DNA from: Spirochaetia bacterium
Lineage (GTDB): Bacteria; Spirochaetota; Spirochaetia; UBA9216
Reading direction: 5' to 3'
Length of the DNA: 64,000 nt
NCBI GenBank assembly: GCA_963677925.2
Contig: CAXXYH010000003.1
Span: 1,824,001 to 1,888,000, forward strand
How positions within the stretch are numbered: position 1 is the stretch's first letter; every line of letters starts with the position of its first letter. Under the pieces are notes generated by a model, which saw only the letters and a list, made by a program, of their open reading frames with translations, did no database searches and was not told the DNA's origin. Shown here in pieces: positions 1 to 27,672 of the stretch. Both the position numbers and the translations under genes were made by a program.

Positions 1-404
1 GCTCCCAGTCCGGGAGTTTCATTCTGATCAGTAAACTCTACACCGGCAAAAGTTTTGAAATCAGGTTCAAAGGCTGTTACGGCCTCTATAGTACCCCAGA
101 GCCCGGGCCCTGAGATTATAAAAGCATAGGCATCAGGATTGCCGTCAGAGCCCTTTATTATAAAAATACCGTTCTGCTCGGAGACCCTTTGTGAATACAG
201 CTCATTTACAGCCGCATTAGACTCAGGAACTTCAACACCGCCAGCGTAGAGAACCGCTTTTTTCTGAAAAAGGCCGTTGTTTGCAGTAACGGTATCAAGT
301 GTTGCAAGGTATATGCCCGATATGATTGCAATACAGATGATTGTAATAACAGCCATCACAACAACAGGTTTAATTCTTTCTGCATAAAATCCGTCTTTTT
401 TCAT
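1..404 (-). CDS. FMN-binding subunit of an Nqr/Rnf-type complex (NqrC/RnfG family), runs off the window edge
   Basis: Read manually: ATG at 404 overlaps the upstream stop (ATGA). MKKDGFYAERIKPVVVMAVITIICIAIISG.. gives an N-terminal TM, followed by GPGLWGTI and the flavinylation motif ETPGLG. Confidence 0.85.
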   Translation of the reverse strand, partial: MKKDGFYAERIKPVVVMAVITIICIAIISGIYLATLDTVTANNGLFQKKAVLYAGGVEVPESNAAVNELYSQRVSEQNGIFIIKGSDGNPDAYAFIISGPGLWGTIEAVTAFEPDFKTFAGVEFTDQNETPGLG

Positions 405-1366
405 GCCTTTGCACCTGCCTTTTTCTTTTTCTTGTACTCCTTCATATAATGATCAAGAAGCGGCGCAAACATGTTTGCAAGCAGAATTGCGAAGGTTGTT
501 GCCTCAACCCATATCGAGAAAAGCCTTATTAAAGCGATTAAAACACCGATCAGCGCTCCGTAAATCCAGCGTCCGGTATCGGTTGTCTGCGACGACGAAA
601 TGGGGTCTGTAGCCATAAAGACCATTCCATAGAGAAGGCTTCCGCTCAGCAGCCCGTAAACAGGATTTACAGCACCTTCCAGGCCGCCAAAGTAGAAAGC
701 AGCCTGAATTACAAGGTAACCGACAATACCTGAAAGTATTATTCTGAAGTTTGCCGCTTTTTTGTAGATCAAAAAGATACCGGCAATAATAATCAGCAGG
801 GCGCTGGTCTCGCCCAGAGAACCGGAAACATTGCCGAGAAGCAGATTCATTAGCGGAGTATCTGTCCCGGCTGCAAAATTTGCTATCGGAGTGGCCTTGG
901 AAACTGCATCAGCACCGTTAAGCCACTGCGCAAAACCTCCGGGAAAGCCCGAAGAAACCGGAACAAAGCCTGAGGTCATCGGTACACCAAAGCTGATATA
1001 TATAAAAGCACGGCCCGAAATAGCAGGATTGAAGACATTCCGTCCGAATCCGCCGAATACCATCTTTCCGAAAACAACGCCGAAGACAATACCGGCAACT
1101 GCTATCCAGTAAGGAACAGCTGGTGGTAGAGAAAGGGCGAAAAGAAAGTTGGTTACAAAAACAGCTGACGAAACCTGCTTTTTATAGATCTTTGCGAAGA
1201 TATACTCACTTAAAAATCCTGCGATATTTACAATTAACAGAACAGAGAGGGCTCTCCATCCGAAAAAGTAAATTGACAGCACCGCAACAGGAATAAGAGA
1301 GTACACTACCTGGAACATTACCTTCTGCCGCATGATTAACGGCTTTTTTTTATCTGTTGTTGCCAT
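401..1366 (-). CDS. rnfD: Rnf/Nqr electron transport complex membrane subunit (RnfD/NqrB family)
   Basis: Polytopic membrane protein with GKMVFGGFGRNVFNPA, FMN site AVSKATP, GSLGETS and FMATDP. Start moved to ATG 1366 (MATTDKKK) because a promoter occupies the upstream ORF extension. Confidence 0.9.
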   Translation of the reverse strand: MATTDKKKPLIMRQKVMFQVVYSLIPVAVLSIYFFGWRALSVLLIVNIAGFLSEYIFAKIYKKQVSSAVFVTNFLFALSLPPAVPYWIAVAGIVFGVVFGKMVFGGFGRNVFNPAISGRAFIYISFGVPMTSGFVPVSSGFPGGFAQWLNGADAVSKATPIANFAAGTDTPLMNLLLGNVSGSLGETSALLIIIAGIFLIYKKAANFRIILSGIVGYLVIQAAFYFGGLEGAVNPVYGLLSGSLLYGMVFMATDPISSSQTTDTGRWIYGALIGVLIALIRLFSIWVEATTFAILLANMFAPLLDHYMKEYKKKKKAGAKA

Positions 1367-1372
1367 ACTTCT

Positions 1373-1401
1373 ATCTTCTTTGATTTTGCAAACATTGTCA
1401 A
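1373..1401 (-). promoter_or_regulatory. sigma70-like promoter, probably leaderless, for rnfD/nqrB
   Basis: TTGACA-17nt-GAAGAT-6nt-ATG on the minus strand; no SD. Confidence 0.5.
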
Positions 1402-1437
1402 TTTTAATATTCAGATAAAACGCCACTATATCAGTAG

Positions 1438-1472: not shown

Positions 1473-1823
1473 ATGATAACTCTTGAACAAGTTTCCGGAA
1501 ATCTTGAATGTAAAACATACAACCAGAGCAGTAACTTTAAAAATGCCGGAATTGAAAACATAGTCGCAAGCGATCTGATGAGCGAAGTCCTTGTCGCAGA
1601 AGAAGAAGGGCTCCTGCTTATTACTGCACTCAATACAGAACAGACCCTGAGAACTGCACATATAGTCGATGCCGTTGGGATTCTGCTTGTGAACGGAAAG
1701 ACCCCCCAGCCCGGAATGATAAAACTGGCTGACGAATTTGATATCACCCTGATCTCAACCAGGACCTCTATGTTCAGAGCCTGTGCCGCGCTCGGCAGAA
1801 TGATGGATGAGGGACAGCATTGA
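1473..1823 (+). CDS. DRTGG domain protein (hydrogenase-associated)
   Basis: ASDLMSEVL...LLITAL...GILLVNGKTP pattern, 116 aa. Confidence 0.85.
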   Translation: MITLEQVSGNLECKTYNQSSNFKNAGIENIVASDLMSEVLVAEEEGLLLITALNTEQTLRTAHIVDAVGILLVNGKTPQPGMIKLADEFDITLISTRTSMFRACAALGRMMDEGQH

Positions 1824-2749
1824 AAAAACTGATTCCTGTTTATCAGAATCAGCCGCTTGCGGTACTTGAGTTAATCCAGGGACATAAAATAAAGGATATA
1901 ATGTCCAGGAACCCGACCTCTGTACCGGGAACAACTACAATGAAAGAGGTCAAGCAGCTGATGAAAGAACGCTCAATTAGCGGTGTTCCTGTACTGAAAA
2001 ACCGAAGACTTGTCGGAATAATCAGCGTCGAAGATCTTCTCAATGCTCTTGAAGCAGGACGGATGAATGATCCGGTTGAAAAGCACATGTCAAGAAATCT
2101 TGTAGTCCTGGAAGAAATGATGCCTGTCAGGTTTGCAATTGATTACTTTGAAAACTACAATTACGGACGTTTCCCGGTTCTTAACGAAAAGAAAGAGCTT
2201 ACAGGCATCATCACCAGCCGCGATATTATCATGCACATGATCAAGGTAATGAATGAGGAGATTCAGCGCCTTGAAGAACTGGCTAAAGACGGCGCACAGA
2301 CAGAAATCGGCAATATTGTCCGGCGGTTTGCAATCCTTCAGAATGATTTCAAGAATGCGGGAAAGGCATCAATCGAGATTAAAAATATTCTCAAAGAACA
2401 CAACATAAACCGGAAAATTATCCGGGCAACCGCAACAGCTGTTTACGAACTTGAAATAAATCAGGTAGTACATTCGATGGGTGGAGAAATTCTGTGCAGG
2501 ATAACCGACAAGTATGTTGAAATACTTGCACGTGACCGAGGACCGGGGATCCCTGATGTTGAGAAGGCAATGACTCCGGGATTTTCAACGGCAACCGACT
2601 GGATCCGGACCCTTGGATTCGGTGCCGGAATGGGTCTGCCCAATATAAAGAGGGTATCCGATGAATTCACTCTGGAGACTTCTGAATCAGGAACAGAAAT
2701 AAGGGTAGTTGTATATATCCCGGATGACAATGCTGAAAAAACGTTATAG
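1820..2749 (+). CDS. CBS-pair + RsbT/SpoIIAB-like Ser/Thr kinase (HATPase_c) fusion
   Basis: Two CBS domains (ISGVPV, YGRFPV), then GHKL motifs YELEINQVVHS, DRGPGIPD and GFGAGMGLPNIKR. TTG start overlaps the upstream stop. Confidence 0.88.
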   Translation: MKKLIPVYQNQPLAVLELIQGHKIKDIMSRNPTSVPGTTTMKEVKQLMKERSISGVPVLKNRRLVGIISVEDLLNALEAGRMNDPVEKHMSRNLVVLEEMMPVRFAIDYFENYNYGRFPVLNEKKELTGIITSRDIIMHMIKVMNEEIQRLEELAKDGAQTEIGNIVRRFAILQNDFKNAGKASIEIKNILKEHNINRKIIRATATAVYELEINQVVHSMGGEILCRITDKYVEILARDRGPGIPDVEKAMTPGFSTATDWIRTLGFGAGMGLPNIKRVSDEFTLETSESGTEIRVVVYIPDDNAEKTL

Positions 2750-2758
2750 AATAAGAAC

Positions 2759-3097
2759 ATGAAAATCAGCGAATTACAGGAAAAACTCGGATATACCATT
2801 CTTACGGCTATGCCTGATAAAAAGATTCTGAATGCATACACATCAGATCTTCTCAGTGATGTGATGGGAAATGCAGCAGATGATTCTGTCCTGATAACCA
2901 TTCAGGCTCATAAAAATACAATAGCAGTAGCCTCACTTGCAGGAATAAATGCAATAATACTCTGCAACGGACGGAAACCTCCCGAGGATATGCTCCCCGC
3001 AGCAGAACAGGAAGGCATTGCAGTATTAAGCACTTCAGTGAACCAGTTCGAAGCTTCTGTGGATGTGGCAAAAGCCCTTAACCTCTGCGGCTGCTGA
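2759..3097 (+). CDS. DRTGG domain protein (second paralog)
   Basis: AYTSDLLSDVMG...VLITIQAHKNTIAVA...IILCNGRKP. Confidence 0.85.
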   Translation: MKISELQEKLGYTILTAMPDKKILNAYTSDLLSDVMGNAADDSVLITIQAHKNTIAVASLAGINAIILCNGRKPPEDMLPAAEQEGIAVLSTSVNQFEASVDVAKALNLCGC

Positions 3098-3100
3098 ACA

Positions 3101-3823
3101 TTGCCGGAATTTAAAGCAGATCTGCACATCCACTCATGCCTCAGTCCATGCGGAAGCCTGGATATGTCGCCGTCGCTGATTGCCGGCGAACTGAAGAAAC
3201 AGAACTTTAAAATTGCAGCCCTCACCGACCACAATTCGGCACTTAACTGCGCGGCTTTTGAAAAATGCTGCCGCCTGCTTGATATAGTACCTATAAGCGG
3301 AATTGAGGTTACGACTGTAGAAGAGTCCCATGTTGTATGCCTTTTCAACAGTGCAGGAACAGCGGAAGAACTGGGAAGGCTTGTCTATTCAAAACTTCCC
3401 GAAGTTCAGAATGTGGCGGAAAAGTTCGGCGATCAGGTAGCCGTTGACGAGGACGAAAACATTATAGCAGAGGTAGATAAATACCTGCTGAGTGCATCAG
3501 AGCTCAGCCTTGATGATCTTTACGACGCCGTCACTGCCCTGGGAGGACTCTTCATTCCTGCTCATATAAACAGACCTGTTTTCAGCATCCCTTCTCAGCT
3601 AGGGTTCCTTCCCGACATGAATTATTCCGCTGTTGAAGTAACAAAACTTCCCTGTGAAACCGATCTAAAAAATTATACAGTGATAGTCAATTCCGATGCA
3701 CACTACCCCCATAACATAGGAAACAGATACAGCATATATGAAAGCGGCGACATTTCCTTTGAAGGTTTGAAAATTTCTATGAAAAAAGGACTGGTATCCA
3801 CTATAATTCAGTCAGGAGTATAA
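3101..3823 (+). CDS. PHP domain metal-dependent phosphoesterase
   Basis: DLHIHSCLSPC, ALTDHN, GIEVTT, PAHI and NSDAH motifs. Confidence 0.9.
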   Translation: MPEFKADLHIHSCLSPCGSLDMSPSLIAGELKKQNFKIAALTDHNSALNCAAFEKCCRLLDIVPISGIEVTTVEESHVVCLFNSAGTAEELGRLVYSKLPEVQNVAEKFGDQVAVDEDENIIAEVDKYLLSASELSLDDLYDAVTALGGLFIPAHINRPVFSIPSQLGFLPDMNYSAVEVTKLPCETDLKNYTVIVNSDAHYPHNIGNRYSIYESGDISFEGLKISMKKGLVSTIIQSGV

Positions 3824-3830
3824 TTCTGAC

Positions 3831-5684
3831 ATGGATTTATTAAAAGATCTGAAAAACCTCCTTGAAGATCTCACAGAACCTGCATGTTTTCTGTCTGCGG
3901 AGTTCAGATATATATGGGCTAATACCAGGTATATAACCCATTCCGGTCATAAAACTGAGGATCTGGATGGTAAAAATCTTTGTGAAGTAATTCCGGCCGA
4001 TTACGCACCGATTCTAATTGAAAAACTTAAAGCCCTGACCACGGAAAATCCTTATTTCGATAATGAATATCCTGAAATTATGATGAACGGTCAGATCATC
4101 AACAGGAGCTGGAGAAACAGGGCAATATTTGACAATAACGGAAAGGTCCTCGCCTACTGCTGTATTGTACAAACTTCAAGCCCGGGAGAAAAGGCTGTAG
4201 TTAACCTGCGTGACAATGATCTAATCCTGAATTCAGTGCTGAAATCTGCAGTTTTCGGATTGATGATCGCTGAAAAAGATAAAATACTTTTTATTAATGA
4301 TGTCTTTGAGCAGATGCTAGAACTATCAGAAAATAAACCTGACCGTGAACGATACAGTTTTGCTGAACTGCTTAACTCATTTTTCAACACTGAATCGCCT
4401 GTAATAAACTCACTCACTGAATACTCGGGAAGTATAAAATTCGAAAAAGAAATAGCAGCCAAAGGAAAAAAAAGATGGGTGTCCGTGATCACCAAGATCC
4501 AGGAATATAATAACAGGATTTTCACAATGATGGTCAGTGAGGATATAACTGTAAAAAAACTCTATGAACTGGAACTTAAAAGAAACAGGGAGAACCTGGC
4601 CCATATAAACAGAATAGCAAAACTGGGATACTGGGAGAAGGATTTCAGCAGGGACCGCTGGTTCTGGTCTGAAGACACCTACCGTATTTTCGATGTCAAA
4701 TATCCTGACGAGGTTACTGAAGATATCATTAAAAATAAATTCCACCCCGATGACTACAAAAAAAGACTCCGGAATATTGAAACATGCATAAACTCGACCA
4801 GCGACTGCAGCTATGAATATGAATACAGAATATTTACTGGAAACGGTAAAATCAGGTGGATTACAGGACAATCATTCTTCAAGACCAATTCGTCAGAAAA
4901 GAAATCCAAATTCTTCGGCTGGGTACAGGATCAAACAGATCGAAAGCAAAATGAGGAAGCCTTAAAGGAAGCTCTGGTAAAAGCTGAAGAATCCGAAAGA
5001 CTAAAAACTGCCTTCCTGGCGAATATCAGTCATGAAATAAGAACGCCTCTGAATGCTATTCTTGGTTTCTCTGACCTTATTTCAAAGACAAGTGACCCCG
5101 ATTTACAGAAAACCTATTCGGGAATAATCAGGAGCAGCGGAAACCTCCTGCTGACCCTGGTCAACGATATGATTGATTTTGCAAAAATTGAAGCAGGGTC
5201 TTTTGAACTGTTTATTTCCGATGTTTACCTTGAAGATCTTTTTCATGAACTCAGAGACATGTTCATGAACCAGAGCGGCGGCGCTGTCAGGCTGCAGATA
5301 GCCGAAGCTCCTGATACAAAGGGACTCCTTCTTACTGACAGAGACAGGCTGACGCAAATCCTTGTAAACCTGATAAATAACGCATTCAAGTACACTGAAA
5401 AAGGCATTATCAGCATCGAAGCTGAGATTAATCATTCTGCAGCAACAGTGGTTATCAGTGTGAGCGACACAGGAATTGGTATAAACCCCTCAGATCTCGA
5501 GCATATTTTTGATCGCTTCTATCAGATTAACAGCTTCAGCCAGGGTACGGGTCTGGGACTCCCCATTTCAAGAGCAATAGCGGCTCAGCTTGGAGGTTCG
5601 CTTACAGTAGAGTCTCAACCTGCGCAGGGATCGAAATTCATGCTCTGCCTGCCCTTTGTCACACCCTCGGAATTAATGTCTTAG
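3831..5684 (+). CDS. Cytoplasmic multi-PAS sensor histidine kinase
   Basis: PAS/PAS_3 (HPDD) domains, H-box FLANISHEIRTPLN, N-box QILVNLINNAFKY, DTGIGI and GTGLGL. No TM and no receiver domain. Confidence 0.92.
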   Translation: MDLLKDLKNLLEDLTEPACFLSAEFRYIWANTRYITHSGHKTEDLDGKNLCEVIPADYAPILIEKLKALTTENPYFDNEYPEIMMNGQIINRSWRNRAIFDNNGKVLAYCCIVQTSSPGEKAVVNLRDNDLILNSVLKSAVFGLMIAEKDKILFINDVFEQMLELSENKPDRERYSFAELLNSFFNTESPVINSLTEYSGSIKFEKEIAAKGKKRWVSVITKIQEYNNRIFTMMVSEDITVKKLYELELKRNRENLAHINRIAKLGYWEKDFSRDRWFWSEDTYRIFDVKYPDEVTEDIIKNKFHPDDYKKRLRNIETCINSTSDCSYEYEYRIFTGNGKIRWITGQSFFKTNSSEKKSKFFGWVQDQTDRKQNEEALKEALVKAEESERLKTAFLANISHEIRTPLNAILGFSDLISKTSDPDLQKTYSGIIRSSGNLLLTLVNDMIDFAKIEAGSFELFISDVYLEDLFHELRDMFMNQSGGAVRLQIAEAPDTKGLLLTDRDRLTQILVNLINNAFKYTEKGIISIEAEINHSAATVVISVSDTGIGINPSDLEHIFDRFYQINSFSQGTGLGLPISRAIAAQLGGSLTVESQPAQGSKFMLCLPFVTPSELMS

Positions 5685-5687
5685 AAT

Positions 5688-5718
5688 AAAAAAAGGCTGC
5701 ATCCCGAAGGATACAGCC
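5688..5718 (-). terminator. Intrinsic terminator after hndD
   Basis: Stem GGCTGCATCC-cgaa-GGATACAGCC with an A7 run on + (U-tract on -). Confidence 0.75.
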
Positions 5719-5748
5719 GTAATTGTACTACTCAAAACGTCAAACTGT

Positions 5749-7500
5749 TCAGTTCTTGTAAAGAGGTCTAGGTGTGTAATGAGTATGAAGAAGGTGGTGA
5801 GACTTCTCGGAAAGAGGAGCACCAAGATATTCTTCATAGATCTTTGCAATATCAGGGTTCTGGTGTGAACATCTGATAGTACTCTTTTCATCATCATTAT
5901 AAAGACCGGCAATTCGCTTCTCACGGATATCGTCTTCAGTACCGTAGGGCTGTCCGCCTCCGGCGATACATCCGCCGCGGCATGCCATTACTTCAATGAA
6001 GTGGTAGGGAAGTTCATCACCCTTTTCCTTGGCAGCTCTAATCTCGTCAAGGACGGCCTTAACATTTGCCATGCCATGAGCTACCGCAACCTTAACCTTG
6101 GTGCCCTTGATATCAACAACACCGGCTTTAACTCCGTCCATACCTCGGACAGCAGTAATATTTACATCAGCAAGCTCTTCCTTGGTTACAAGGTAGTAGG
6201 CTGAGCGCACTGCGGCTTCCATAACACCGCCGGTTACACCGAAGATTGTTCCTGCACCTGTGTATGCGCCGATAGGACTGTCAGCCTCTTCCTCAGGAAG
6301 GTTGGCAAAGTCGATACCTGCAGTTTTTATGCATCTTGCAAGCTCTCTTGTTGTAAGAACGAGATCCACATCATCATAGCCTGATGACTGCATGTTCTCA
6401 TCTCTGACTCTTTCAAACTTCTTGGCTGTACATGGCATTATTGAAACAGAGTAAATCTTTGAAGGATCAATCCCCTTCTTCTCTGCATAATATGTCTTGG
6501 TTATTGCTCCCTGCATCATCTGCGGAGATTTTGCAGTTGAGAAATGCGGAATCATATCCGGATAGTATTTTTCCATGTAATCTGTCCATGCGGGACAGCA
6601 GGAAGTAAGCTGCGGCAGCTCACCCTTTCCGTTTACAAGCCTTTCAACAAGCTCGGACCCCTCTTCCATGATGGTGAGGTCGGCGGAAAAGTTAGTATCA
6701 AATACAGCATCAACACCAAGCATTCTAAGTGCAGCATAAATTTTTCCAGTTACAATTTCACCGGGTTTCATGCCGAATGCTTCACCGATTGCAACCCTGA
6801 CTGCAGGTGCCATCTGAACAGCTACATGCTTCTCGGGATCCTTGATAGCAGCTTTCATCAGGTCGGTATCATCTTTTTCATAGATTGCGCCGACAGGACA
6901 GTGTGCTGAACACTGACCGCACTTGATACAGGGGCTTTCATTAAGAACTACACCTGCTGAAGGCATAAGTCTTGTATTCTCACCTCTGTTAAGGAATTCA
7001 AGTGCCCATACATCCTGCAGCTGCTGACAGACCTGTGCACAGCGGCCGCACTGGATACATTTTGAAGGATCAAGAATGATTGAAGGTGTTGATTCATCCT
7101 TCGGGAGTCTTTTAACATTGCGGTCAAAAGGGATTTCCCTGATGGCGTATTCAGCAGCAAGCCTCTGAAGCTCACAGGTCTGGTTACGTCCGCAGGTAAG
7201 ACATTCCTGGGGATGATCCGCAAGAGTCATTTCAATAACGGTTTTTCTTATTGAATGTATTTCAGGATCGTTGGTGATATAATTCTGTCCCTCACTTACA
7301 AGTGTTGAACAGGCTCTGACCATTCTGGGGTTGCCCTCAATCTTGACAACACAGATTCCGCATGCAGCCCAGGGGGTCAGATCAGAATGATAACAGAGTG
7401 TCGGAATCTTAACACCGGCCATCTTTGCGGCTTTGAGTATTGATGTTCCAACCGGAACACTCTGTTCTCTGCCGTTAACCTTTATATTTACAGTACTCAC
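5749..7500 (-). CDS. hndD: NAD(P)H-dependent [FeFe] hydrogenase group A catalytic subunit
   Basis: N-terminal 2Fe-2S, His-ligated and 2x4Fe-4S domains; H-cluster motifs TSCCPAW, MPCTAKKFE and EVMACRGGCIAGGGQP; C-terminal LLHTHY. Confidence 0.95.
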   Translation of the reverse strand: MSTVNIKVNGREQSVPVGTSILKAAKMAGVKIPTLCYHSDLTPWAACGICVVKIEGNPRMVRACSTLVSEGQNYITNDPEIHSIRKTVIEMTLADHPQECLTCGRNQTCELQRLAAEYAIREIPFDRNVKRLPKDESTPSIILDPSKCIQCGRCAQVCQQLQDVWALEFLNRGENTRLMPSAGVVLNESPCIKCGQCSAHCPVGAIYEKDDTDLMKAAIKDPEKHVAVQMAPAVRVAIGEAFGMKPGEIVTGKIYAALRMLGVDAVFDTNFSADLTIMEEGSELVERLVNGKGELPQLTSCCPAWTDYMEKYYPDMIPHFSTAKSPQMMQGAITKTYYAEKKGIDPSKIYSVSIMPCTAKKFERVRDENMQSSGYDDVDLVLTTRELARCIKTAGIDFANLPEEEADSPIGAYTGAGTIFGVTGGVMEAAVRSAYYLVTKEELADVNITAVRGMDGVKAGVVDIKGTKVKVAVAHGMANVKAVLDEIRAAKEKGDELPYHFIEVMACRGGCIAGGGQPYGTEDDIREKRIAGLYNDDEKSTIRCSHQNPDIAKIYEEYLGAPLSEKSHHLLHTHYTPRPLYKN

Positions 7501-7515
7501 TGTTATTCTCCTTTA

Positions 7516-9309
7516 TTAGCTCTTTGATATTGCACCGAATTTACAGCTGGTAAAACATTCACCGCACTTCACACACTGACTCTGGTCAATAACGTGAGCC
7601 TGCTTTCTTTCACCGCTGATACAGTTAACCGGACACTTTCTGGCACATACCGTACAGCCGATACATTTGTCTGCATCAATCTCAAACTTTACAAGATCCT
7701 TACATTTACCGGGCTTACAGACCTTTCCGTCTACATGCTCAAGGTATTCATTCTTAAAGTATTTAAGAGTTGAAAGTATCGGGTTCGGAGCTGTCTGACC
7801 AAGACCGCAGAGCGCAGCCTTTTTCATTGCTGTTCCGATTGTTTCAAGGTTTTCAAGGTCCTTATGAGTTCCCTTACCCTTGCTTATCTTGTCTAGAATA
7901 TCATAGAGCTTTCTGGTTCCGATTCGGCATGGAGCACATTTACCGCAGGACTCTTCAACACAGAAATCCTGATAAAATTTGGCTACGTTGATAATACAGT
8001 CGTCTTCATCCATTACGATCATTCCGCCTGAACCCATCATTGAGCCGATGGCTGTCAGCTGATCAAAGTCGATAGGAGTATCAAGGAATTCAGAAGTAAT
8101 AACACCGCCGGAAGGTCCGCCTGTCTGCACGGCCTTGAATGCCTTACCGTCCCTGATTCCTCCGCCGATATCAAAAACGATTTCACGGAGAGTTGTACCC
8201 ATAGGAACTTCAACCAGACCGGAGTTATTAATCTTGCCTGTGAGGGCAAAAACCTTTGTTCCGGGAGATCTTTCCGTACCGATAGATTTGAACCACTCAC
8301 CGCCTTTAAGGATAATCATGGGAATATTTGCCCAGGTTTCAACATTGTTGATTACAGTCGGCTTTGCCCAAAGTCCTTCAACAGCAGGAAAAGGCGGTTT
8401 CGGAGTAGGCATACCCCTGTTTCCTTCAATAGATCTTAGTAGAGCAGTCTCTTCACCGCAGACAAATGCACCGGCACCGAGTCTGATTTCAAAATCAAAG
8501 TTGAAACCGCTGCCGAGAATATCATTTCCGAAGAGTCCGTATTCTCTGGCCTGTTCAATTGCAATTTCAAGACGTTTAATAGCAAGCGGGTATTCCGCTC
8601 TAATGTATATAACTCCTTTTTCAGCGCCTACAGCGTAACCGGCAATGGCCATAGCCTCAAGAACTGAATGCGGATCGCCTTCAAGAGTACTTCTGTCCAT
8701 ATATGCACCGGGGTCGCCCTCGTCTGCATTACATACAATGTATTTCACATCGTTTTCAACGTCTTTTGTGAATTTCCACTTCATCCATGTCGGAAAGCCG
8801 GCTCCGCCGCGTCCTCTAAGTCCGGAAATTTTAAGCTGCTCTATAACTTCATCCTGAGACATTTCAAAAAGAACTTTTTCGAGCGCTGAATAACCTTCTC
8901 TGGCTATGTACTCATCGATCTTTTCCGGATCAATGAATCCGCAGTTTCTAAGGACTATTCTGACCTGCTTCTGGTAGAATTTAATTTTTTCAATATCAAA
9001 CTCGTCTTTTGAGCCGTTTTCATCATCAACATAGAGAAGTCTTTTAACCATTCGGCCTTTTACGATTGACTCTGCGATAATTTCCTTAGCGTCTTCAGGA
9101 ACAACTTCTACATAAAAAGATTCTTCCGGAAGTATTTTTACGATTGGTCCCTTTTCACAGAAACCGAAACATCCTGTTTTTACAATCTGAACATCATCTG
9201 CAACACCCTGGGCTTCAGCCTCACTTTTCAGGGCATTGAAGATTTCGTTTGCTTTGCTTGATTCGCATGCTGTACCGCCGCAAACAAGTATATAATTCTT
9301 AACTGCCAT
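7516..9309 (-). CDS. hndC: [FeFe] hydrogenase diaphorase subunit (NuoF/HndC/HydB)
   Basis: GLRGRGGAGFP, NADEGDPG, GAFVCGEETAL and ESCGKCAPCR; C-terminal 2x4Fe-4S. Confidence 0.95.
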   Translation of the reverse strand: MAVKNYILVCGGTACESSKANEIFNALKSEAEAQGVADDVQIVKTGCFGFCEKGPIVKILPEESFYVEVVPEDAKEIIAESIVKGRMVKRLLYVDDENGSKDEFDIEKIKFYQKQVRIVLRNCGFIDPEKIDEYIAREGYSALEKVLFEMSQDEVIEQLKISGLRGRGGAGFPTWMKWKFTKDVENDVKYIVCNADEGDPGAYMDRSTLEGDPHSVLEAMAIAGYAVGAEKGVIYIRAEYPLAIKRLEIAIEQAREYGLFGNDILGSGFNFDFEIRLGAGAFVCGEETALLRSIEGNRGMPTPKPPFPAVEGLWAKPTVINNVETWANIPMIILKGGEWFKSIGTERSPGTKVFALTGKINNSGLVEVPMGTTLREIVFDIGGGIRDGKAFKAVQTGGPSGGVITSEFLDTPIDFDQLTAIGSMMGSGGMIVMDEDDCIINVAKFYQDFCVEESCGKCAPCRIGTRKLYDILDKISKGKGTHKDLENLETIGTAMKKAALCGLGQTAPNPILSTLKYFKNEYLEHVDGKVCKPGKCKDLVKFEIDADKCIGCTVCARKCPVNCISGERKQAHVIDQSQCVKCGECFTSCKFGAISKS

Positions 9310-9320
9310 CCTCTCCTCCG

Positions 9321-9713
9321 TTATTCCCTGACAATATCGGCTGCGGGCTTGTCAAAAATATGGTTGTCGACAAGCTTGCCCGCTAAAATATGTTCTTTAA
9401 CTATCCGGCGGGCTGTATCCCCGTCAACCTGTCCATAGATTGTATCCGGCATTCCCGGAGCCTTGATTTCAACTGTAGGTTCTACATAGCAGAGGCCCAT
9501 ACAGCCGGTCTGTTTTACAGTTACATTCTTGACTCCGCTTTTCTCTATTTCATCAAGGAAGGCATCGAGAGCTTCTTTGGCGCCGGCGGCGATTCCGCAT
9601 GTACCCATCCCGATGATGATATGAATATCTTTTCCTTCTGTATCTCTCTTATCAATTTCAGCTTTTTTGCTGTTCCTGAGATTTCTAAGTTCCTCAAGGG
9701 TCATTTTTGCCAT
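9321..9713 (-). CDS. hndB: Thioredoxin-like 2Fe-2S hydrogenase subunit (HndB/HydD)
   Basis: GMGTCGIAAGA and TGCMGLCYVEP motifs; operon position. Confidence 0.88.
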   Translation of the reverse strand: MAKMTLEELRNLRNSKKAEIDKRDTEGKDIHIIIGMGTCGIAAGAKEALDAFLDEIEKSGVKNVTVKQTGCMGLCYVEPTVEIKAPGMPDTIYGQVDGDTARRIVKEHILAGKLVDNHIFDKPAADIVRE

Positions 9714-9715
9714 AA

Positions 9716-10276
9716 TTAATCTCCCTGTATCAAATCTTCTTCCTGTGACCGCAGAAACTGTCTCGCAAGAATAAGCGAGTCTGCATCATTAAGGTCACCA
9801 AGAACCTCTATTATTTCTGATCGTTTTACGGAATACCCGCGTACTTCACCTTCTATCTCCAGGCTGCGTTCAACCGGCATATCATACAGTCCATCAAACA
9901 TGAATGCCTGCAGAATCATCGCGCTGAGGTCTCCGAGAGGAGGGGTATCGATATTATCAAGCGGAAATGTAAAAACAAGGTCGGTCCCTCTGTTCTTTTC
10001 CGACTTTATCGAAAAATCTCCTCCGGTCTGCTCAACCGTCTGGATCAAAAAAGGAAGTCCTAACCCGACTTTGCGTGATTTGTGTTTTATACCGTCCGTA
10101 TAGAATGGATCGACAGCCTTTTTTAATTCGTCTTCATCCATTCCTCTGCCGTTGTCTTTAATTGAAACCGCGAAGTTCCGGGCGGTCTGGTTTATATCAA
10201 GATAAACCTCGGTAGCCCCTGCTTCTACAGAATTCTGAAGACAATCAAGGATAAAATCACAGACGGCTGCATGCAC
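9716..10276 (-). CDS. Stand-alone GHKL (HATPase_c) ATP-binding protein inside the hnd operon
   Basis: LQNSVEAGA, KDNGRGM, DPFYT and KVGLGLP; no HisKA domain. Confidence 0.85.
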   Translation of the reverse strand: MHAAVCDFILDCLQNSVEAGATEVYLDINQTARNFAVSIKDNGRGMDEDELKKAVDPFYTDGIKHKSRKVGLGLPFLIQTVEQTGGDFSIKSEKNRGTDLVFTFPLDNIDTPPLGDLSAMILQAFMFDGLYDMPVERSLEIEGEVRGYSVKRSEIIEVLGDLNDADSLILARQFLRSQEEDLIQGD

Positions 10277-10279
10277 TAA

Positions 10280-10768
10280 TCAGCCTCTGGATCGGAATTT
10301 AGCAAGTACTTCCGGGAGCTCGTCTTTAGTTACTTTACCGAAGACCTCTCCGTCAACTATCATTACCGGTGCAAGACCGCAGCAGCCTACGCATCGAACC
10401 GATTCTATAGAAAAAAGACCGTCATCAGTTACTTCATTCACGGCCACACCGAGAAGTGTCTCAAGCTCTTTGATTAAGTCTTCTCCGCCTTTCAGATAAC
10501 ATGCAGTTCCCATGCATACCTGAATATTGTATTTTCCGGGTTTATCAAGTTTAAAGAAATGATAAAAAGTAATTACACCATAAATCTTGGCCAGCGGTGT
10601 ATCGAGCATGTCGGAAACTTTGATTGCGGCTTCTCTTGGAATATAGCCAAATTCTTCCTGCACCTTGTGAAGTACCATAATCAGATTTCCAGGTTTGTTC
10701 TTCCATTCCTCAATAAATGAAACGAGTTCACTGGAGAACTCGATCTGAGGAGCTGTTTCTACAGCCAT
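10280..10768 (-). CDS. hndA: NuoE-like 2Fe-2S hydrogenase subunit (HndA/HydC)
   Basis: VCMGTACYLKG and RCVGCCGLAP motifs; AGGAGG SD. Confidence 0.92.
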   Translation of the reverse strand: MAVETAPQIEFSSELVSFIEEWKNKPGNLIMVLHKVQEEFGYIPREAAIKVSDMLDTPLAKIYGVITFYHFFKLDKPGKYNIQVCMGTACYLKGGEDLIKELETLLGVAVNEVTDDGLFSIESVRCVGCCGLAPVMIVDGEVFGKVTKDELPEVLAKFRSRG

Positions 10769-10898
10769 AGATCCTCCTGTTTGAATTTTTGGGATTTACC
10801 AGGTAAAAATCTGGATCTTATTAAGTAAAATGTCAATACATATAATAAGCAATACATCACCAATCATGCTTCAAAAACATTTTTTTTTGTTTTTTCAA

Positions 10899-10927
10899 TT
10901 GTTTTTTTCTCATAACATGCGTATAAT
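10899..10927 (+). promoter_or_regulatory. sigma70 promoter of rex
   Basis: TTGTTT-17nt-TATAAT. Confidence 0.5.
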
Positions 10928-10936
10928 GTTTATATA

Positions 10937-10986
10937 TTGTGAATAGAGACGCATTAAAAGCGACTAAGATACGAAATACTTCACAA
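10937..10986. promoter_or_regulatory. Candidate Rex operators
   Basis: Perfect half-site TTGTGAA at 10937, and ATACGAA-ATAC-TTCACAA at 10969-10986, versus the consensus TTGTGAA-N4-TTCACAA; lies between hndA and rex. Confidence 0.5.
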
Positions 10987-11006
10987 CAAGGAGATTTTTT
11001 AAATTC

Positions 11007-11669
11007 ATGAATAAGGAACTCATCCTCAGACTGTCCAAATATAAGAGACTTCTATACAAACTTAAAGCACTCGGACTTGAACGTGTATTCTCAAACAACC
11101 TTGGAGATGCGATTGCCGTAGCACCATCACTGGTCAGAAAAGACTTCTCGGTACTTAACCTTCCCGGAAACAAACGCGGGGGCTATGATATTGATATGCT
11201 GATTGAAAAACTCGATGTCGTACTCGGACGGGATAAACCTCAGGAGGTCATCGTTGCCGGATGCGGTCGTATCGGTACCGCACTCATGCAGTATGAAGAG
11301 TTCAGAAATGAAGGGATCAAGATAGTAGCAGGTTTTGATATAGCGCCCGAGAATGTTTCGAAAACCTCCGGAGTCCCGATATACCACATGCGTGAGATGA
11401 AGGAGTATGTCCAGAAAAACGGAACCAGGGTAGGTATAATTGCGGTGCCCGACAGTGCAGCGGCTCAGACCCTTGAGACAATGATTGATGCAGGAATAAG
11501 AGGCGTCCTGAACTTCGCAACAATAGAATTACGGACAGGAAAAGGCGGAGAGCTTGCTGATGACAATCTCCAGTGCACGATACACAACATTAATATATGT
11601 CTTGAACTTGAGCATCTTTTCTATCAGGTAAATGTTGCCAACAACCTCCCGGAAATTAACGAATCATAA
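11007..11669 (+). CDS. rex: Redox-sensing transcriptional repressor Rex
   Basis: RLSKYKR..VRKDFS winged helix, GCGRIGTAL Rossmann fold, GVLNFA. Confidence 0.93.
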   Translation: MNKELILRLSKYKRLLYKLKALGLERVFSNNLGDAIAVAPSLVRKDFSVLNLPGNKRGGYDIDMLIEKLDVVLGRDKPQEVIVAGCGRIGTALMQYEEFRNEGIKIVAGFDIAPENVSKTSGVPIYHMREMKEYVQKNGTRVGIIAVPDSAAAQTLETMIDAGIRGVLNFATIELRTGKGGELADDNLQCTIHNINICLELEHLFYQVNVANNLPEINES

Positions 11670-18408: not shown

Positions 18409-19623
18409 ATGCAGAAATCATTACTTCGAAAAATCAGCCTATTGCTGCTGTTTGTAATCACCATATTCAGGCTTCCTGCCGCTGAATCAGCCTTTCCTGT
18501 AATAAATTCAGAATCGGCAATTCTTATAGACATGGGAACAGGTACAGTACTCTTTGAAAAGAATGCAGACACGGTTATTCCTCCCGCATCAATGACAAAG
18601 CTTATGACAATGCACATTGCGCTCGAAGCAGTCAAAAACGGGCAATGCAGCCTTGACGATTATGTACCGATAGGCAGGAATGCTGATTTCCGAAACCAGC
18701 CTCCCCACTCTTCGCTTATGTTTATCGAAGAAGGTCAGAAGGTAACACTTGCCGGACTGCTTACCGGACTGGCAATTCCCTCCGGTAATGATGCCGCGGT
18801 GGCTGTAGCTGACTTTATAGCCGGCAGCACCCCGGAATTTATCAGAATGATGAATGCAGAGGCGGACAGGCTTGGTCTGCTGAACACAAATTTTGATGAC
18901 ACCTCCGGATATTCAGCATATAACAGTACAACATCAAGGGAGTATGCTGAGTTCTGCAGCTACTACATAAGCGAACATCCTGAAGCACTTGAACTCTTTC
19001 ATGCAATAACCGAGTTCACCTATCCGGCAGAGAATAATCTGCCGGACAGCGGAGAAAGCGTTTACGGACCCATAACACAGTACAATCATAACCAGCTTGC
19101 CGGAAGATACCCGGGAGTCGATGGACTAAAAACCGGTTATATTGATGAATCGGGTTTTAACATAGCCGCCACCTGTATACAGAACGAAAGAAGGCTTCTT
19201 GCTGTCATTATGGGGGGCCGGGGAAAGACCACATCAGATGGAAATCTTAAAAGGCTTGTCGATGTTTCAATTCTTTTTACCTACGGTTTTGAGGCATGGA
19301 CTGTTTTCAGTCCCGGAAAAAACACTTACACCGAGATGAAGGTCTGGAAAGGAAAGCGGGATTTCGTTGCCGCCGAAAGAACAAAGGCTGATGATATATG
19401 TCTTAAATACTCTGATTTGATTGATGCCCAATACATAGACACTCCGGCAGACCTGCTCGAAGCCCCGCTATCCAGGGGTGATACGATTGGGTCATGGAAG
19501 CTTGTAGCATCCGATGGCGAAACCCTTACAGAGGGAACTCTTACAGCCATGGCTGAAATAGAAGAAGGCGGCTGGATAAAAAGAAAGCTTGATTCGTTCA
19601 GACTGCGGCGGCTTAGTAATTAG
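18409..19623 (+). CDS. dacA: D-alanyl-D-alanine carboxypeptidase (S11)
   Basis: PASMTK, SGN and KTGY motifs; signal peptide. Confidence 0.92.
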   Translation: MQKSLLRKISLLLLFVITIFRLPAAESAFPVINSESAILIDMGTGTVLFEKNADTVIPPASMTKLMTMHIALEAVKNGQCSLDDYVPIGRNADFRNQPPHSSLMFIEEGQKVTLAGLLTGLAIPSGNDAAVAVADFIAGSTPEFIRMMNAEADRLGLLNTNFDDTSGYSAYNSTTSREYAEFCSYYISEHPEALELFHAITEFTYPAENNLPDSGESVYGPITQYNHNQLAGRYPGVDGLKTGYIDESGFNIAATCIQNERRLLAVIMGGRGKTTSDGNLKRLVDVSILFTYGFEAWTVFSPGKNTYTEMKVWKGKRDFVAAERTKADDICLKYSDLIDAQYIDTPADLLEAPLSRGDTIGSWKLVASDGETLTEGTLTAMAEIEEGGWIKRKLDSFRLRRLSN

Positions 19624-19994
19624 AAAGAATCAGGAAACTTGGAGCTTAGATAACTTTTCAGGTGGGCCTTGTTTACCGGTTTTTCAAGATAACCGTCATA
19701 CGACATCGATGACAGCCGGCCGGCAAACATTTTCTCGGGATAGGCGGAGATAAAGATCACCTTTGTATCAGGATTTTCGGTCTTGATTATCTCACAGGCA
19801 TCAAGACCGTCCTCCTTTGAAGCCATATTTATATCAAGAAATGCTACATCGGGCTTGTGAGCTCTCACAGCCTTTACAACCTCAGTACCATCCTGAGCTT
19901 CGGATTGAATTTCAATTCCGAAGCCGGTAAGTGTCATTGACAGAAATACTCTGAGGATTATCTCATCATCAGCTATAACAGCTCTTAATCCCAT
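19620..19994 (-). CDS. Single-domain response regulator
   Basis: IADDE, FLDINM, ISAY and LEKP motifs. Confidence 0.9.
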   Translation of the reverse strand: MGLRAVIADDEIILRVFLSMTLTGFGIEIQSEAQDGTEVVKAVRAHKPDVAFLDINMASKEDGLDACEIIKTENPDTKVIFISAYPEKMFAGRLSSMSYDGYLEKPVNKAHLKSYLSSKFPDSF

Positions 19995-22450: not shown

Positions 22451-25400
22451 ATGCAGAACATAGGAATTAACATTGGCTCTTCAAGCCTGAAAATTGTTAT
22501 GCTTGAAGACGGCAAAATCAGCTGGACAAGTGTTCTTCCTCATGAAGGAGATTTTGTCTCCACACTTACTAAATCACTCAGCGGCAGAGACATTGCACCC
22601 GATGCAACAGCCCTGGTAACAGGAACTGAAGGCCGCTACCTTTTCAATATCAAGAGTACAATTGAGACTGTATGTATTGAAAGCGCTCTGAACCAGATTG
22701 GGCACAAGGTAAATGCAGTGGTCAGCATGGGCGGTGAAGATCTGACGGTCTACACTATAGATGAGAATAACAAGATTCAGAACAACTTCACAGGAAGTAA
22801 ATGTGCTTCAGGAACCGGCGAGTTCTTCAAGCAGCAGCTTGGACGAATGGACATGGTTCTCTCTGATGTAGAGAATGTTGATGAGAATGCAAAGGTTCTT
22901 TCTCTGTCATCAAGATGTTCAGTTTTCATGAAGAGTGACTGTACACACCGGCTTAACAAGAGAGAAGCCACAAAGGATGATATCGTTCTTTCTCTAAGCG
23001 ATGTAATGGCCACTAAAGTAATCGACTTCCTCAACAGGGCAAAGATTAAGGACGGAAAGGTTCTTCTTGCCGGAGGAATCACACTTAACAAGTTCATTGT
23101 AAGCTTCATCAAAGAAAAGGCTCCCGGAATCGAGTTTATCGTACCCGAAGAAGCCCCCTACTTTGAAGCCTACGGCGCAGCCCTTCTTGCAGGCGAAAAC
23201 GGAAGCAAGATGCCGGCTGTTGAAAAGCTGCTGAAGGACAATGTTATCAAATTCCCCCGCTATGACAAGCTTTCAAGCGTGATGGACAAGGTAACATACT
23301 TCGAAGCCGAAGTCGGCAAGGTTGAAGCAGGAAAGGAATACATCCTCGGTGTAGACGGCGGTTCAACAACAACCAAGGCCTGTCTTATCGATATTGAAAC
23401 TGATCAGATTGTTGCACAGCATTACGGACGAACCCATGGAGACCCTGTTAAGGCTCTCAAGGGCTGTATCGTTGAACTTCAGAAGAAGATTAAGGAAGAT
23501 ATCGGTGATGAGAAGATTAAAATCAGTCTTGCCTCAACAACCGGGTCTTCACGAGAGATTCTCGGTGTTTTTCTTGAAACATCAGGTGTTTACAACGAGA
23601 TTATTGCTCATGCATACGGAACAACCTTCTTTGCCGAAGATGTAGATACAATCTTCGAAATCGGCGGGCAGGATGCAAAATACGTACTTCTCAATCATAA
23701 GGTACCTATCGATTATGCTATGAACGAGGCATGTTCTGCAGGAACAGGCTCCTTCCTAGAAGAATCAGCATCAGGCGATCTCAACATCAGAAGCGCTGCC
23801 GACATAGGTGACATCGCAATCAAGGCTGAAAGACCGCTGAAGTTCGGCGAGCACTGTTCTGCATTTATCAATTCAGACATCAGAAAGGCTATCCAGCAGG
23901 GAGCCCTTCGTGAAGATATTACAGCGGGTATTGTTACCTCAATTGTTTCAAACTACCTCAACCGCGTAGTTGGAAACAGAACAATAGGAAACAAAATCTT
24001 CCTCCAGGGCGGTGTTGCTAAGAACAAGGCAATTCCGCTGGCATTTGCAATGATGGTAGGAAAAGAGATTCTGGTTCCCCCGTCCCCTGAACTTATGGGA
24101 TGTTTCGGTGTAGGTCTTCTTGCAAAGCAGAAACTTGCCGAGGGACTTCTTGAAAAATCAGAATTCGATCTCGATGCAATACTCGAGACAGAAATTGTCT
24201 ACGAAAAGCAGTTCAGATGCAAGGCATGTGACAATGACTGTCCGATTCAGGTGCTTCAGGTTAACGGTCACAAGTACATGTTCGGCGGACGCTGTTCAAA
24301 ATACACAAACAGCAGAAAGAAGATTGAGACAAGCACCGAGACTGTAGACTTTGTACAGAGACGTTCAGACCTTAACTTTGTTGAGTGCGCCGCTGATCCT
24401 GAAACCTTCGTACAGAAAAGAGATTACACAGTGGGTATTCCAAGGGCCTTCTCGGTTCATTCGCTATACCCGCTTTACTCATGGTTCTTCCATACACTCG
24501 GAATTAAAACCGTGCTTTCAGATGAAATTGCACATGAGGGTATTGCAAGAGCGGAAAGTACTTACTGCTTTCCGGCGGAAATTGCGCACGGAGCAGTTCA
24601 GGACATCATCAACAAGGGCTGTGACTACATCTTCCTGCCTCACTTCAGGGATATGACCAGCTATGAAACCGATGTCCACGCTAACTTCTGTCCTATCACG
24701 CAGGGTCTTCCCTACTACATCAAGAAAGCATTCCCGGATGTTGCCGAGAACAAGATTCTTGAACTTGTAGTTTCCTTCAAATTCGGAAAAGACAAGGCTC
24801 TTGAACTGTTCCAGAAGTTCGGCAAGCAGCTTGATATCAGCGAGGGCGAAATCAAGAAGGCTTTCAACGTTGCCGTTCAGAAACAGGAAGCCTTCCTGCT
24901 CAAGCTTAAAGAACTGGGACTTGAGGCTCTTGAGTTTGCAAGAAACAGCGACAAGCCTGTTATTGCCCTTCTTGGACGTCCCTACAACGCATTCACCCGC
25001 GAAGCAAACATGGGTATCCCCAAGAAATTTACATCAAAGAACTTTACAGTAATTCCGTTCGACATTCTGCCGTACGAGAATGAAGAGATATACGACAACA
25101 TGTACTGGTACTACGGTCAGCAGGACATGAAGTCGGCAAGACTCATCAAGCAGGAAGACAACATCTATGCAGCATGGATTTCAAACTTCTCATGCGCGCC
25201 TGACTCCTTCATGCTCCACTACCTCAAGTGGATTATGGGAAGAAAGCCCTTCCTCGTTCTTGAACTTGACTCACACTCTGCAGACGCCGGTGTCGACACC
25301 CGTGTTGAGGCCTTTCTTGATATTATTGAAGGATACAGAAGCAAGTTTGAAGATGTTGAGCAGGAAAGATACGACAACGGACTGCGGTTCAGAAACGAAG

Positions 25401-26788: not shown

Positions 26789-26811
26789 GCTGATCTATTT
26801 TTAAAACACTG

Positions 26812-26850
26812 GGAGCTGACTAAGAACTATTCTTAGCCGGCTCTTTTTTT
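26812..26850 (+). terminator. Intrinsic terminator
   Basis: GAGCTGACTAAGAA-cta-TTCTTAGCCGGCTC followed by T7. Confidence 0.85.
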
Positions 26851-26984
26851 ATGGCATAAATCAATGTTTTACAAACCAGACCGGTCCTGCCGACACTTTT
26901 GCAGCCGTTTTTAACGTAAAATTAATACAATTTTTGTAAGAAATGGCACATTGTATATGGAATTCTCTATGAAAGAATGCTAAT

Positions 26985-27017: not shown

Positions 27018-27019
27018 TT

Positions 27020-27656: not shown

Positions 27657-27672
27657 TCAAACTGGAGTCAAT

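Follow-up and report, generated by a model that had tools for sequence, protein, structure and literature searches.

Control of bifurcating [FeFe] hydrogenases beyond the repressor Rex is an open question. Rex was reported to control hydrogenase genes in Thermoanaerobacterales (PMC5886521). Kinases have been noted beside both bifurcating and 'sensory' hydrogenases and are left uncharacterised (PMC3561251, PMC8163306): group D enzymes were classed as sensory partly by their 'proximity to protein kinases' (PMC3561251), and Land et al. described a histidine-kinase-like ATPase that flanks TamHydS (PMC8163306). The order hydC-tte0891-hydD-hydB-hydA is that of the native operon of the NADH-dependent hydrogenase of Caldanaerobacter, in which Tte0891 is called 'hypothetical' (PMC4694547); the Hfs/HydS system with a Ser/Thr kinase is a related idea (PMC5707799). 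In 2026, one paper still calls the interaction and signalling partners of putative sensory hydrogenases unknown (PMC13104023). On the side of nucleotide sensing, the CBS-DRTGG-CBS insert of family II pyrophosphatases (CBS-PPases) is regulated by adenine nucleotides and Ap4A (10.1101/2020.04.07.028951). The locus described here lies in a stretch of 64,000 nucleotides (the window) from a Spirochaetia bacterium (assembly GCA_963677925.2, contig CAXXYH010000003.1), where a cassette of genes for two small DRTGG-like proteins (DRTGG1 and DRTGG2), a kinase with a CBS pair and a PHP-family phosphoesterase converges on an hndABCD operon for an [FeFe] hydrogenase, with rex next to it.

The cassette is a conserved, partner-switch-like variant that is facultatively wired to rex and hnd. 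Its arrangement of DRTGG, CBS-kinase, DRTGG and PHP genes converging on hndABCD had been proposed by a first-pass annotation, and an open reading frame (ORF) listing together with Pfam and NCBIfam scans found every one of these genes in place, in two convergent operons (Table 1). The five genes of the forward operon are each joined by an overlap or a gap of 3–9 nt, and the stop of DRTGG1 overlaps the start of the kinase gene by 4 nt. The inventory of the first-pass annotation was correct for the genes that it named, but it overlooked the two ordinary regulators of the locus, a PAS histidine kinase (3831–5684) and rex, which lies just outside the coordinates that it covered.

The kinase carries two CBS domains (101.6 bits in Pfam) followed by HATPase_c_2 (PF13581, 32.8 bits against a cut-off of 27.4) at residues 180–297. 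Its best PDB sequence matches are the SpoIIAB structures 1til and 1l0o, with which residues 165–309 are collinear (E 6.5e-5). The score against TIGR01925 is 41 bits, compared with a cut-off of 135, so that the protein is not an orthologue of SpoIIAB. In a set of 16 homologues with 47–73% identity, the N box (E210, N214, H218), the G1 box (D239, G241, G243) and the G2 box (G266–G272) are invariant. By sequence, the protein is a SpoIIAB/RsbW-class GHKL serine kinase with intact ATP-binding boxes, and the earlier description of it as RsbT-like held in this sense. The same 16 sequences all keep G66/D72 and G129/D135, which occupy positions of the G-h-h-S/T-x-x-D motif of the two CBS domains. This motif is ribose-binding.

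The kinase family is large. At least 5765 homologues with E ≤ 1e-3 were found among 8000 scored candidates, and a search limited to shorter proteins returned 7312 matches, many of which are complete CBS-less kinases of 137–145 aa that bear Bacillota names and are 50–58% identical to the kinase domain. The size of this CBS-less family indicates that the kinase core is conserved and the CBS pair an added sensor, and the CBS-less proteins P0128–P0247 suggest that the sensor domain is exchangeable. In-frame fusions of kinase and DRTGG were sought among the longer proteins and in the profile search; two appear to be genuine. One is P0126; the other, P0382, came from the profile search and joins DRTGG to a kinase that lacks CBS. 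Together they offer weak Rosetta-stone support for a functional pairing. A further candidate, P0127, was rejected as a frameshift artefact. The predicted complex of kinase and DRTGG2 scored 0.05 (mark 0.32), which speaks neither for nor against binding.

The two DRTGG proteins are paralogues (28% identity, E 4e-10). DRTGG2 matches PF07085 with 27.7 bits (cut-off 25.2) over profile positions 39–100 only, and a weak Pfam match to Hpr_kinase_N was also seen at a DRTGG protein. The first-pass annotation had pointed to a shared SDL(M/L)S(E/D)V motif. This is indeed present in both, as ASDLMSEV in DRTGG1 (P0001) and TSDLLSDV in DRTGG2 (P0003), and D-L-[LM]-S-[DE]-V is at least 90% conserved among 18 DRTGG1 and 65 DRTGG2 orthologues (18 ORFs of up to 135 aa out of 19 matches, and 65 ORFs of up to 130 aa out of 77). 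A profile search of 1.84 billion representatives gave 1665 members of the DRTGG2 family at E ≤ 1e-3. The family alignment was built from the window protein and 129 of the best 149 new matches (100–135 aa; 20 shorter or longer ones were dropped). Among these 130 sequences the D-L-[LM]-S core is kept in 121–128 (D30 in 128, L31 in 121, L32 in 124, S33 in 128), as are T47 (130), Q49 (110), H51 (117) and N53 (127), whereas the first serine of the proposed motif, S29, is found in only 77. With D30, S33 and T47 nearly invariant and S29 variable, the true hallmark of the family, as read from the alignment, is D-L-L-S plus T-x-Q-x-H-x-N; the D, S and T are common to both paralogues.

The model of DRTGG2 has a mean predicted local distance difference test value (pLDDT) of 93.9. 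In it, the motif spans the end of strand 25–28 and the first turn of helix 32–38, where S33 lies, and T47 ends strand 43–47. The top fold match is AF1212, which belongs to Pfam DRTGG (TM 0.84), followed by the DRTGG domain of the Clostridium perfringens CBS-pyrophosphatase (3l2b/3l31, TM 0.72) and the N-terminal domain of HPr kinase (1ko7, TM 0.72). The canonical TGG residues are not kept; the profile alignment with 3l2b places TGG opposite C69-N70-G71. On these alignments, the DRTGG2 family is a divergent DRTGG subfamily. A STAS-like fold was considered and rejected, as no STAS protein appears among the listed fold matches, and a single-sequence PDB search for DRTGG2 was uninformative.

The fourth protein of the cassette matches the PHP family PF02811 (35.8 bits, cut-off 26.4) and carries the full metal-ligand set, H9, H11, D43, H44, E69, H77, H155, D199 and H201, invariant in 31 of 31 sequences. 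The same 31 sequences keep H-x-H-S-C-L-S-P-C at residues 9–17, in which C13 and C17 form a CxxxC beside the metal ligands, with C57 nearly invariant; this cysteine pair may be redox-sensitive or form an extra metal site. In Foldseek, the PHP model (pLDDT 95.4) is nearest to Endonuclease Q (EndoQ; 5zb8, E 4e-12, TMq 0.66–0.69) and TM0559 (2anu), followed by BAD_1165, RNase AM, the AMP-bound Cv1693 (2yb1), nucleotide phosphatases and polymerase PHP domains. The best NCBIfam rows, all below their cut-offs, are PHP domains of TrlF-family ATPases, CehA/McbA hydrolases, a nucleotide bisphosphatase and an anti-phage protein; a single-sequence PDB search gave only weak matches. No protein phosphatase is named in the descriptions of the nine NCBIfam rows or of the listed Foldseek matches. 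A role of this enzyme in reversing the kinase, as had been proposed, is weakened by this company of EndoQ, TM0559, RNase AM and nucleotide phosphatases. A precedent for a PHP-type protein phosphatase does exist in CpsB/YwqE.

How far the cassette belongs to the hydrogenase was addressed with a genome scan that used the kinase alignment. At least 524 relatives were confirmed and 80 loci kept, mostly from Spirochaetota, with some from Fibrobacterota and Verrucomicrobiota, one metagenome-assembled genome (MAG) of the PVC group and one MAG labelled Clostridia; cassette and hnd genes were mapped in these loci by tblastn. The triad of kinase, DRTGG2 and PHP is an autonomous and very common module: DRTGG2, an obligate partner of the kinase, comes after it in 77 of the 79 loci with room for this gene, and PHP follows in 66 of 71. 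A DRTGG1 orthologue is present in 19 of the 80 loci, which makes it a facultative member. At least one Hnd subunit gene was found in 25 of the 80 loci, and at least three in 20 of the 51 loci with 6.5 kb or more of upstream sequence and in 12 of the 33 with large flanks on both sides.

Rex is encoded beside 24 of the 25 hnd-linked loci, in most of them directly upstream of the cassette and on the same strand. The commonest layout has hndDCB, the ATPase gene and hndA on the minus strand and rex on the plus strand, followed on the rex strand by DRTGG1 (where present), the kinase, DRTGG2 and PHP. In the clade of the window (L001–L005), the cassette and the PAS kinase instead converge on hndD. The existence of these two layouts, one after rex and one converging on hndD, shows that the linkage of hnd and cassette survived rearrangement. 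Linkage occurs in four phyla (Spirochaetota, Fibrobacterota, Verrucomicrobiota and one MAG of Bacillota). In a tree built from 81 kinases, the rows with hnd linkage group together: set against all other rows, the label needs 8 changes, compared with a mean of 22.2 after shuffling, and none of 500 shuffles was as low. The unlinked rows are mainly a clade of Sphaerochaetaceae with 29 rows and a Treponema clade with 17. The association with hnd is therefore far above chance, but it goes back to few independent events and is facultative. The predicted co-occurrence with a hydrogenase is thus borne out for 25 of the 80 loci, while most of the sampled loci have no hydrogenase gene nearby; the idea of a dedicated hydrogenase switch has to be given up on the same ground.

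Some individual loci deserve mention. Three of them (L019, L029 and L061) hold rex and the cassette without hnd. One of these, L029, encodes a full-length orthologue (46% identity) of the ATPase that interrupts the hnd operon (7425–7961, minus strand) beside rex (8173–8724, plus strand), DRTGG1 and the rest of the cassette, with no hnd structural gene within the fetched flanks. The kinase of the MAG labelled Clostridia (L050) groups with a Spirochaetaceae kinase (L054) with full support; both loci are hnd-linked, and the grouping reflects transfer of the unit as a whole or else an error in binning. In two loci without hnd, the genes immediately downstream of the cassette encode HcyBio (homocysteine biosynthesis) and a NIL-ferredoxin (12630–14239 in L020 and 12035–13632 in L062).

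By its domains, the minus-strand operon of the window encodes a tetrameric, NADH-linked [FeFe] hydrogenase of the bifurcating type. HndD scores 321.8 bits for Fe_hyd_lg_C and 95.8 bits for Fe_hyd_SSU and passes NF040763, 'NADH-dependent [FeFe] hydrogenase, group A6' (805.5 bits, cut-off 765). HndC matches Complex1_51K (160.7 bits) and NADH_4Fe-4S (110.9 bits) and has an N-terminal 2Fe-2S domain and two C-terminal Fer4 domains. HndB matches 2Fe-2S_thioredx below the cut-off (E 3.1e-4) and 2Fe-2S ferredoxin families at E 1e-8, and its position is kept in 24 loci. A sensory hydrogenase (HydS-type, group C/D) was found neither in the window nor among the tblastn matches of HndD in the 80 loci.

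A lone GHKL ATPase between hndA and hndB had already been remarked upon, and this was confirmed: HATPase_c (65.2 bits, residues 9–107) is its only domain, with no HisKA or DHp domain, so that it does not qualify as a two-component histidine kinase. The best PDB sequence match is the CA domain of YycG (E 5e-10). The ORF begins at the N box, 3 nt past the stop of hndA, with gaps of 2–3 nt to its neighbours, and ends in an extension of about 75 aa of no recognised type; searches of the ESM Atlas with the protein and with its C-terminal 79 residues returned its own family only, or matches below 0.85. In each of the 24 loci where both hndA and hndB are seen, the gene sits between the two.

Rex passes NF003996 (220 bits, cut-off 138) and is the only DNA-binding protein that adjoins. 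A scan for Rex operators gave 8 matches where 5.1 were expected, which is not significant. The gap between hndA and rex contains the half-sites TTGTGAA (10937–10943) and TTCACAA (10980–10986), 36 nt apart, and a match with three mismatches at 10969–10986. The PAS kinase starts 7 bp after PHP, scores 98.8 bits for HATPase_c, 71.8 for HisKA and 57.9 for PAS_3, and is confined to the window clade L001–L005. No response regulator adjoins it; the nearest receiver-only gene is at 19620–19994 on the minus strand.

From the genes and domains identified, the intact catalytic motifs and the observed conservation and synteny, we infer how the cassette may work, and hold this reading tentatively, as somewhat short of an even chance. 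The CBS pair would bind an adenosine-containing ligand (AMP, ADP, ATP or a relative), and binding would set the activity of the fused SpoIIAB-class GHKL kinase. The kinase would bind, and probably phosphorylate, the small DRTGG-fold proteins at their Asp-Ser/Thr pocket (D30, S33, T47), and the PHP metalloenzyme would either reverse this mark or be the effector that is controlled. In the many lineages where it is encoded with rex and hnd, the control of hydrogen metabolism would thereby receive a signal of energy state besides the NADH/NAD+ signal that comes through Rex. The module might reach the hydrogenase at the level of transcription, by way of Rex, or after translation, by way of the lone ATPase. 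Phosphorylation of the DRTGG proteins is plausible, and the cassette probably feeds the energy state of the cell into the control of hydrogen metabolism. The module stands alone in other lineages, which means that the hydrogenase is one target context rather than its sole purpose. Compared with the interpretation of the first-pass annotation, the kinase class, the CBS motifs and the pairing of kinase and DRTGG2 persist, whereas the dedicated hydrogenase role is lost and the resetting by PHP has become one option of two.

Several observations count against this mechanism. The partner of the kinase has a DRTGG fold and not a STAS fold, and we know of no SpoIIAB-class kinase that uses a DRTGG-fold substrate. 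The residues D30, S33, T47, Q49, H51 and N53 form a multi-residue pocket (Q49, H51 and N53 kept in 110–127 of 130) that would fit a ligand-binding or active site equally well. Neighbours of PHP, in fold as in sequence, are nucleases and nucleotide phosphoesterases. Both fusion proteins are singletons that could be read-through errors. The fetched flanks hold no hydrogenase gene in 55 of the 80 loci, in 31 of the 51 with at least 6.5 kb upstream and in 21 of the 33 with large flanks on both sides; 77 flanking proteins scanned from nine hnd-less loci were housekeeping neighbours, with no hydrogenase domain among them. The kinase tree shows about four changes between linked and unlinked states, and hence few independent associations. 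Finally, the search of the hndA–rex gap (10769–11006) turned up no canonical Rex operator.

Much of this can also be read in terms of nucleotide sensing, without phosphorylation of the DRTGG proteins. In this main rival, the free DRTGG proteins would pair with the CBS module, much as the two domain types do in the CBS-DRTGG-CBS insert of CBS-PPases, and together they would make up a sensor that dimerises and binds a ligand; the GHKL domain would act on another target or only as an ATP-driven clamp, and the effector would be PHP as a nucleotide or nucleic-acid phosphoesterase. DRTGG2 and the CBS region of the kinase both match the regulatory region of CBS-PPases (NCBIfam PRK14869), which fits with the 3l2b/3l31 fold of DRTGG2, the alignment of TGG with C69-N70-G71 and the reported response of that insert to adenine nucleotides and Ap4A. 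The polar pocket of DRTGG2 and the kinship of PHP with EndoQ, RNase AM and AMP-bound Cv1693 point the same way. However, the invariant ATP-binding boxes of the kinase and its 50–58% identity to thousands of CBS-less proteins argue for a conserved catalytic role that is independent of CBS, and the invariant Ser/Thr would need another explanation. Such a complex is regarded as somewhat unlikely.

It is also conceivable, although unlikely, that the module is a general housekeeping switch unrelated to the hydrogenase, and that its adjacency to rex and hnd is inherited synteny or reflects shared regulation of a redox and energy neighbourhood, which rnfD adjoins too. The 55 loci without hnd nearby are in keeping with this, as are the entire Sphaerochaetaceae and Treponema clades (29 and 17 rows) that carry the triad among unrelated genes, the few independent linkage events on the kinase tree and the very large family of CBS-less kinases (7312 matches). 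The linkage nevertheless extends across four phyla and through a rearrangement, while a random gene would be expected within 10 kb of one particular operon in under about 1% of cases. Moreover, L029 retains the ATPase of the hnd operon with the cassette after hnd is gone. A further reading leaves the control of hnd to the ordinary regulators alone: to Rex (NADH/NAD+) and, in the window clade, to the PAS histidine kinase acting with a response regulator encoded elsewhere. The lone CA protein would then be an accessory to this path and the triad a bystander in the same operon. This is very improbable. Rex scores above its NCBIfam cut-off and stands beside 24 of the 25 hnd-linked loci, the cassette is transcribed together with the PAS-HisKA-HATPase kinase and Rex has the precedent in Thermoanaerobacterales cited above, but the PAS kinase occurs in L001–L005 only, its nearest receiver-only gene (19620–19994) is not adjacent, and the retention of the triad next to rex in so many lineages is left unexplained.

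Table 1. Features of the cassette and hydrogenase locus; positions refer to the window.
Feature	Position	Strand	Basis
DRTGG-like protein 1 (DRTGG1), 116 aa	1473..1823	+	no Pfam/NCBIfam match; homologous to DRTGG2
CBS pair + SpoIIAB/RsbW-class GHKL serine-kinase domain (by sequence), 309 aa	1820..2749	+	Pfam CBS x2, HATPase_c_2
DRTGG-like protein 2 (DRTGG2), 112 aa	2759..3097	+	PF07085
PHP-family metal-dependent phosphoesterase, 240 aa	3101..3823	+	PF02811
Cytoplasmic PAS-PAS-HisKA-HATPase sensor histidine kinase, 617 aa, final gene of the + operon	3831..5684	+	Pfam
Terminator-like hairpin in the 64-bp convergent gap	5695..5718	-	10-pair stem, 6 GC pairs, then T-run
hndD/hydA, [FeFe] hydrogenase catalytic subunit, M3-type	5749..7500	-	Fe_hyd_lg_C, Fe_hyd_SSU, NF040763
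hndC/hydB, NuoF-like flavoprotein subunit	7516..9309	-	Complex1_51K, NADH_4Fe-4S
hndB/hydD, small thioredoxin-like [2Fe-2S] protein	9321..9713	-	2Fe-2S_thioredx below cut-off, position
Lone histidine-kinase-type ATP-binding (CA) domain protein, 186 aa	9716..10276	-	HATPase_c
hndA/hydC, NuoE-like [2Fe-2S] subunit	10280..10768	-	2Fe-2S_thioredx 163.3 bits
rex, redox-sensing (NADH/NAD+) repressor, divergent from hndA	11007..11669	+	NF003996

On the other side of the cassette, rnfD (401–1426, minus strand) begins at a distance of 46 bp from DRTGG1, and no rnfC lies upstream of rnfD. The adjacency of rnfD and cassette recurs in L001, L003, L004 and L005, so that in this clade the cassette lies between rnf and hnd. 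The absence of a STAS protein and a sigma factor, as had been noted, was upheld for the scanned ORFs of the window. A promoter scan gave 28 matches, compared with 21.3 in shuffled sequences, and was thus not above the shuffles. Beyond the locus the window is ordinary, and a second hydrogenase-like gene was looked for in it and not found. Three very large genes of the BcrAD/BadFG-type ATPase / DUF2229 'CoA enzyme activase' kind, with a TetR regulator between them, occupy 22451–32098 on the plus strand. At 57300–61219 on the minus strand, genes for an aldehyde:ferredoxin oxidoreductase, an iron alcohol dehydrogenase and an IclR regulator stand in a row and make up another ferredoxin-linked redox outlet.

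The cassette is common (at least 5765 kinase homologues and 1665 representatives of the DRTGG2 family), tightly conserved and of a size that suits direct biochemical work. Should the kinase phosphorylate DRTGG and PHP reverse this, bacterial Ser/Thr partner-switching would gain both a substrate fold and a phosphatase fold that are new to it, and there might be a handle on the balance of H2 and ethanol in fermenters. If the cassette is instead a general energy sensor, a large family of DRTGG and PHP proteins so far labelled 'hypothetical' would acquire a role. A bolder and, taken as a whole, improbable proposal is that of a new class of phospho-switches with a SpoIIAB-type kinase (gated by CBS here and by other inputs in CBS-less relatives), DRTGG-fold acceptors and PHP as the cognate phosphatase, in which the DRTGG protein, phosphorylated or not, would act on Rex or on the lone ATP-binding protein, letting energy charge gate the bifurcating hydrogenase; the module might then also be the missing partner of the PAS-less 'sensory' hydrogenases of Firmicutes. 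The interest for hydrogenase regulation and phospho-signalling is tempered by the purely genomic nature of the evidence and by the facultative linkage to the hydrogenase. No description of a DRTGG/CBS-kinase/PHP cassette was found in a full-text literature search, which did not extend to subscription literature (Soboh 2004, Calusinska 2010) or to the supplements of bioRxiv preprints. The gene neighbourhood had been noticed before at the level of annotation, and the cassette itself appears to be uncharacterised.

Among known systems, kinase-like genes also adjoin bifurcating [FeFe] hydrogenase operons in the HydS/Hfs-type and Tte0891 loci of Firmicutes (PMC4694547, PMC3561251, PMC5707799), and the gene of the histidine-kinase-like ATPase Tte0891 likewise lies between those for a NuoE-like and a small ferredoxin-like subunit (PMC4694547). 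Unlike the HydS/Hfs systems, the locus described here has a CBS pair as its sensor, and a group C/D hydrogenase is lacking from the window and the 80 loci. The hydrogenase-adjacent kinases of Firmicutes probably belong to the same DRTGG/PHP cassette, and loci of the Thermoanaerobacter type presumably have DRTGG, RsbW-like (CBS-less kinase) and PHP genes around a group D hydrogenase.

With EndoQ and TM0559-type PHP enzymes, its best structural matches, the PHP protein shares the full metal-ligand set. It differs from EndoQ in sequence (18% identity) and length (240 compared with 400 aa), lacks the extra domains of EndoQ and has the invariant CxxxC by HxH. The likeness to HPr kinase/phosphorylase consists of a DRTGG-like fold (1ko7, TM 0.72) coupled to a Ser-kinase system for sensing the metabolic state; the kinase domain of HprK/P is of the P-loop type, whereas here it is GHKL. 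The N-terminal domain of HprK/P is, to our knowledge, of unknown function. The CBS-DRTGG-CBS insert of CBS-PPases brings together the same two domain types, with the fold match to 3l2b/3l31 (TM 0.72). Here, in contrast, each domain type has a protein of its own, a kinase domain and a PHP enzyme provide the output, TGG is replaced (C69-N70-G71) and D-L-L-S and T-x-Q-x-H-x-N are added.

The overall design most resembles that of the partner-switching modules SpoIIAB-SpoIIAA-SpoIIE, RsbW-RsbV-RsbU/P and RsbT-RsbS/R. As in these, the gene of a small HATPase_c_2 Ser kinase, collinear with SpoIIAB, adjoins those of an alpha/beta protein of about 110 aa and a phosphoesterase, and the small partner has an invariant Ser at the N-terminus of a helix. 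The differences are a DRTGG fold in place of STAS, PHP in place of PP2C, a locus without a sigma factor and a kinase with an N-terminal CBS pair. Of the four features of partner-switching, the kinase of HATPase_c_2 class is present, while a STAS antagonist, a PP2C (SpoIIE-type) phosphatase and a sigma factor or other defined output are absent, and for this reason the cassette is described as working like such a module rather than as a member of the class.

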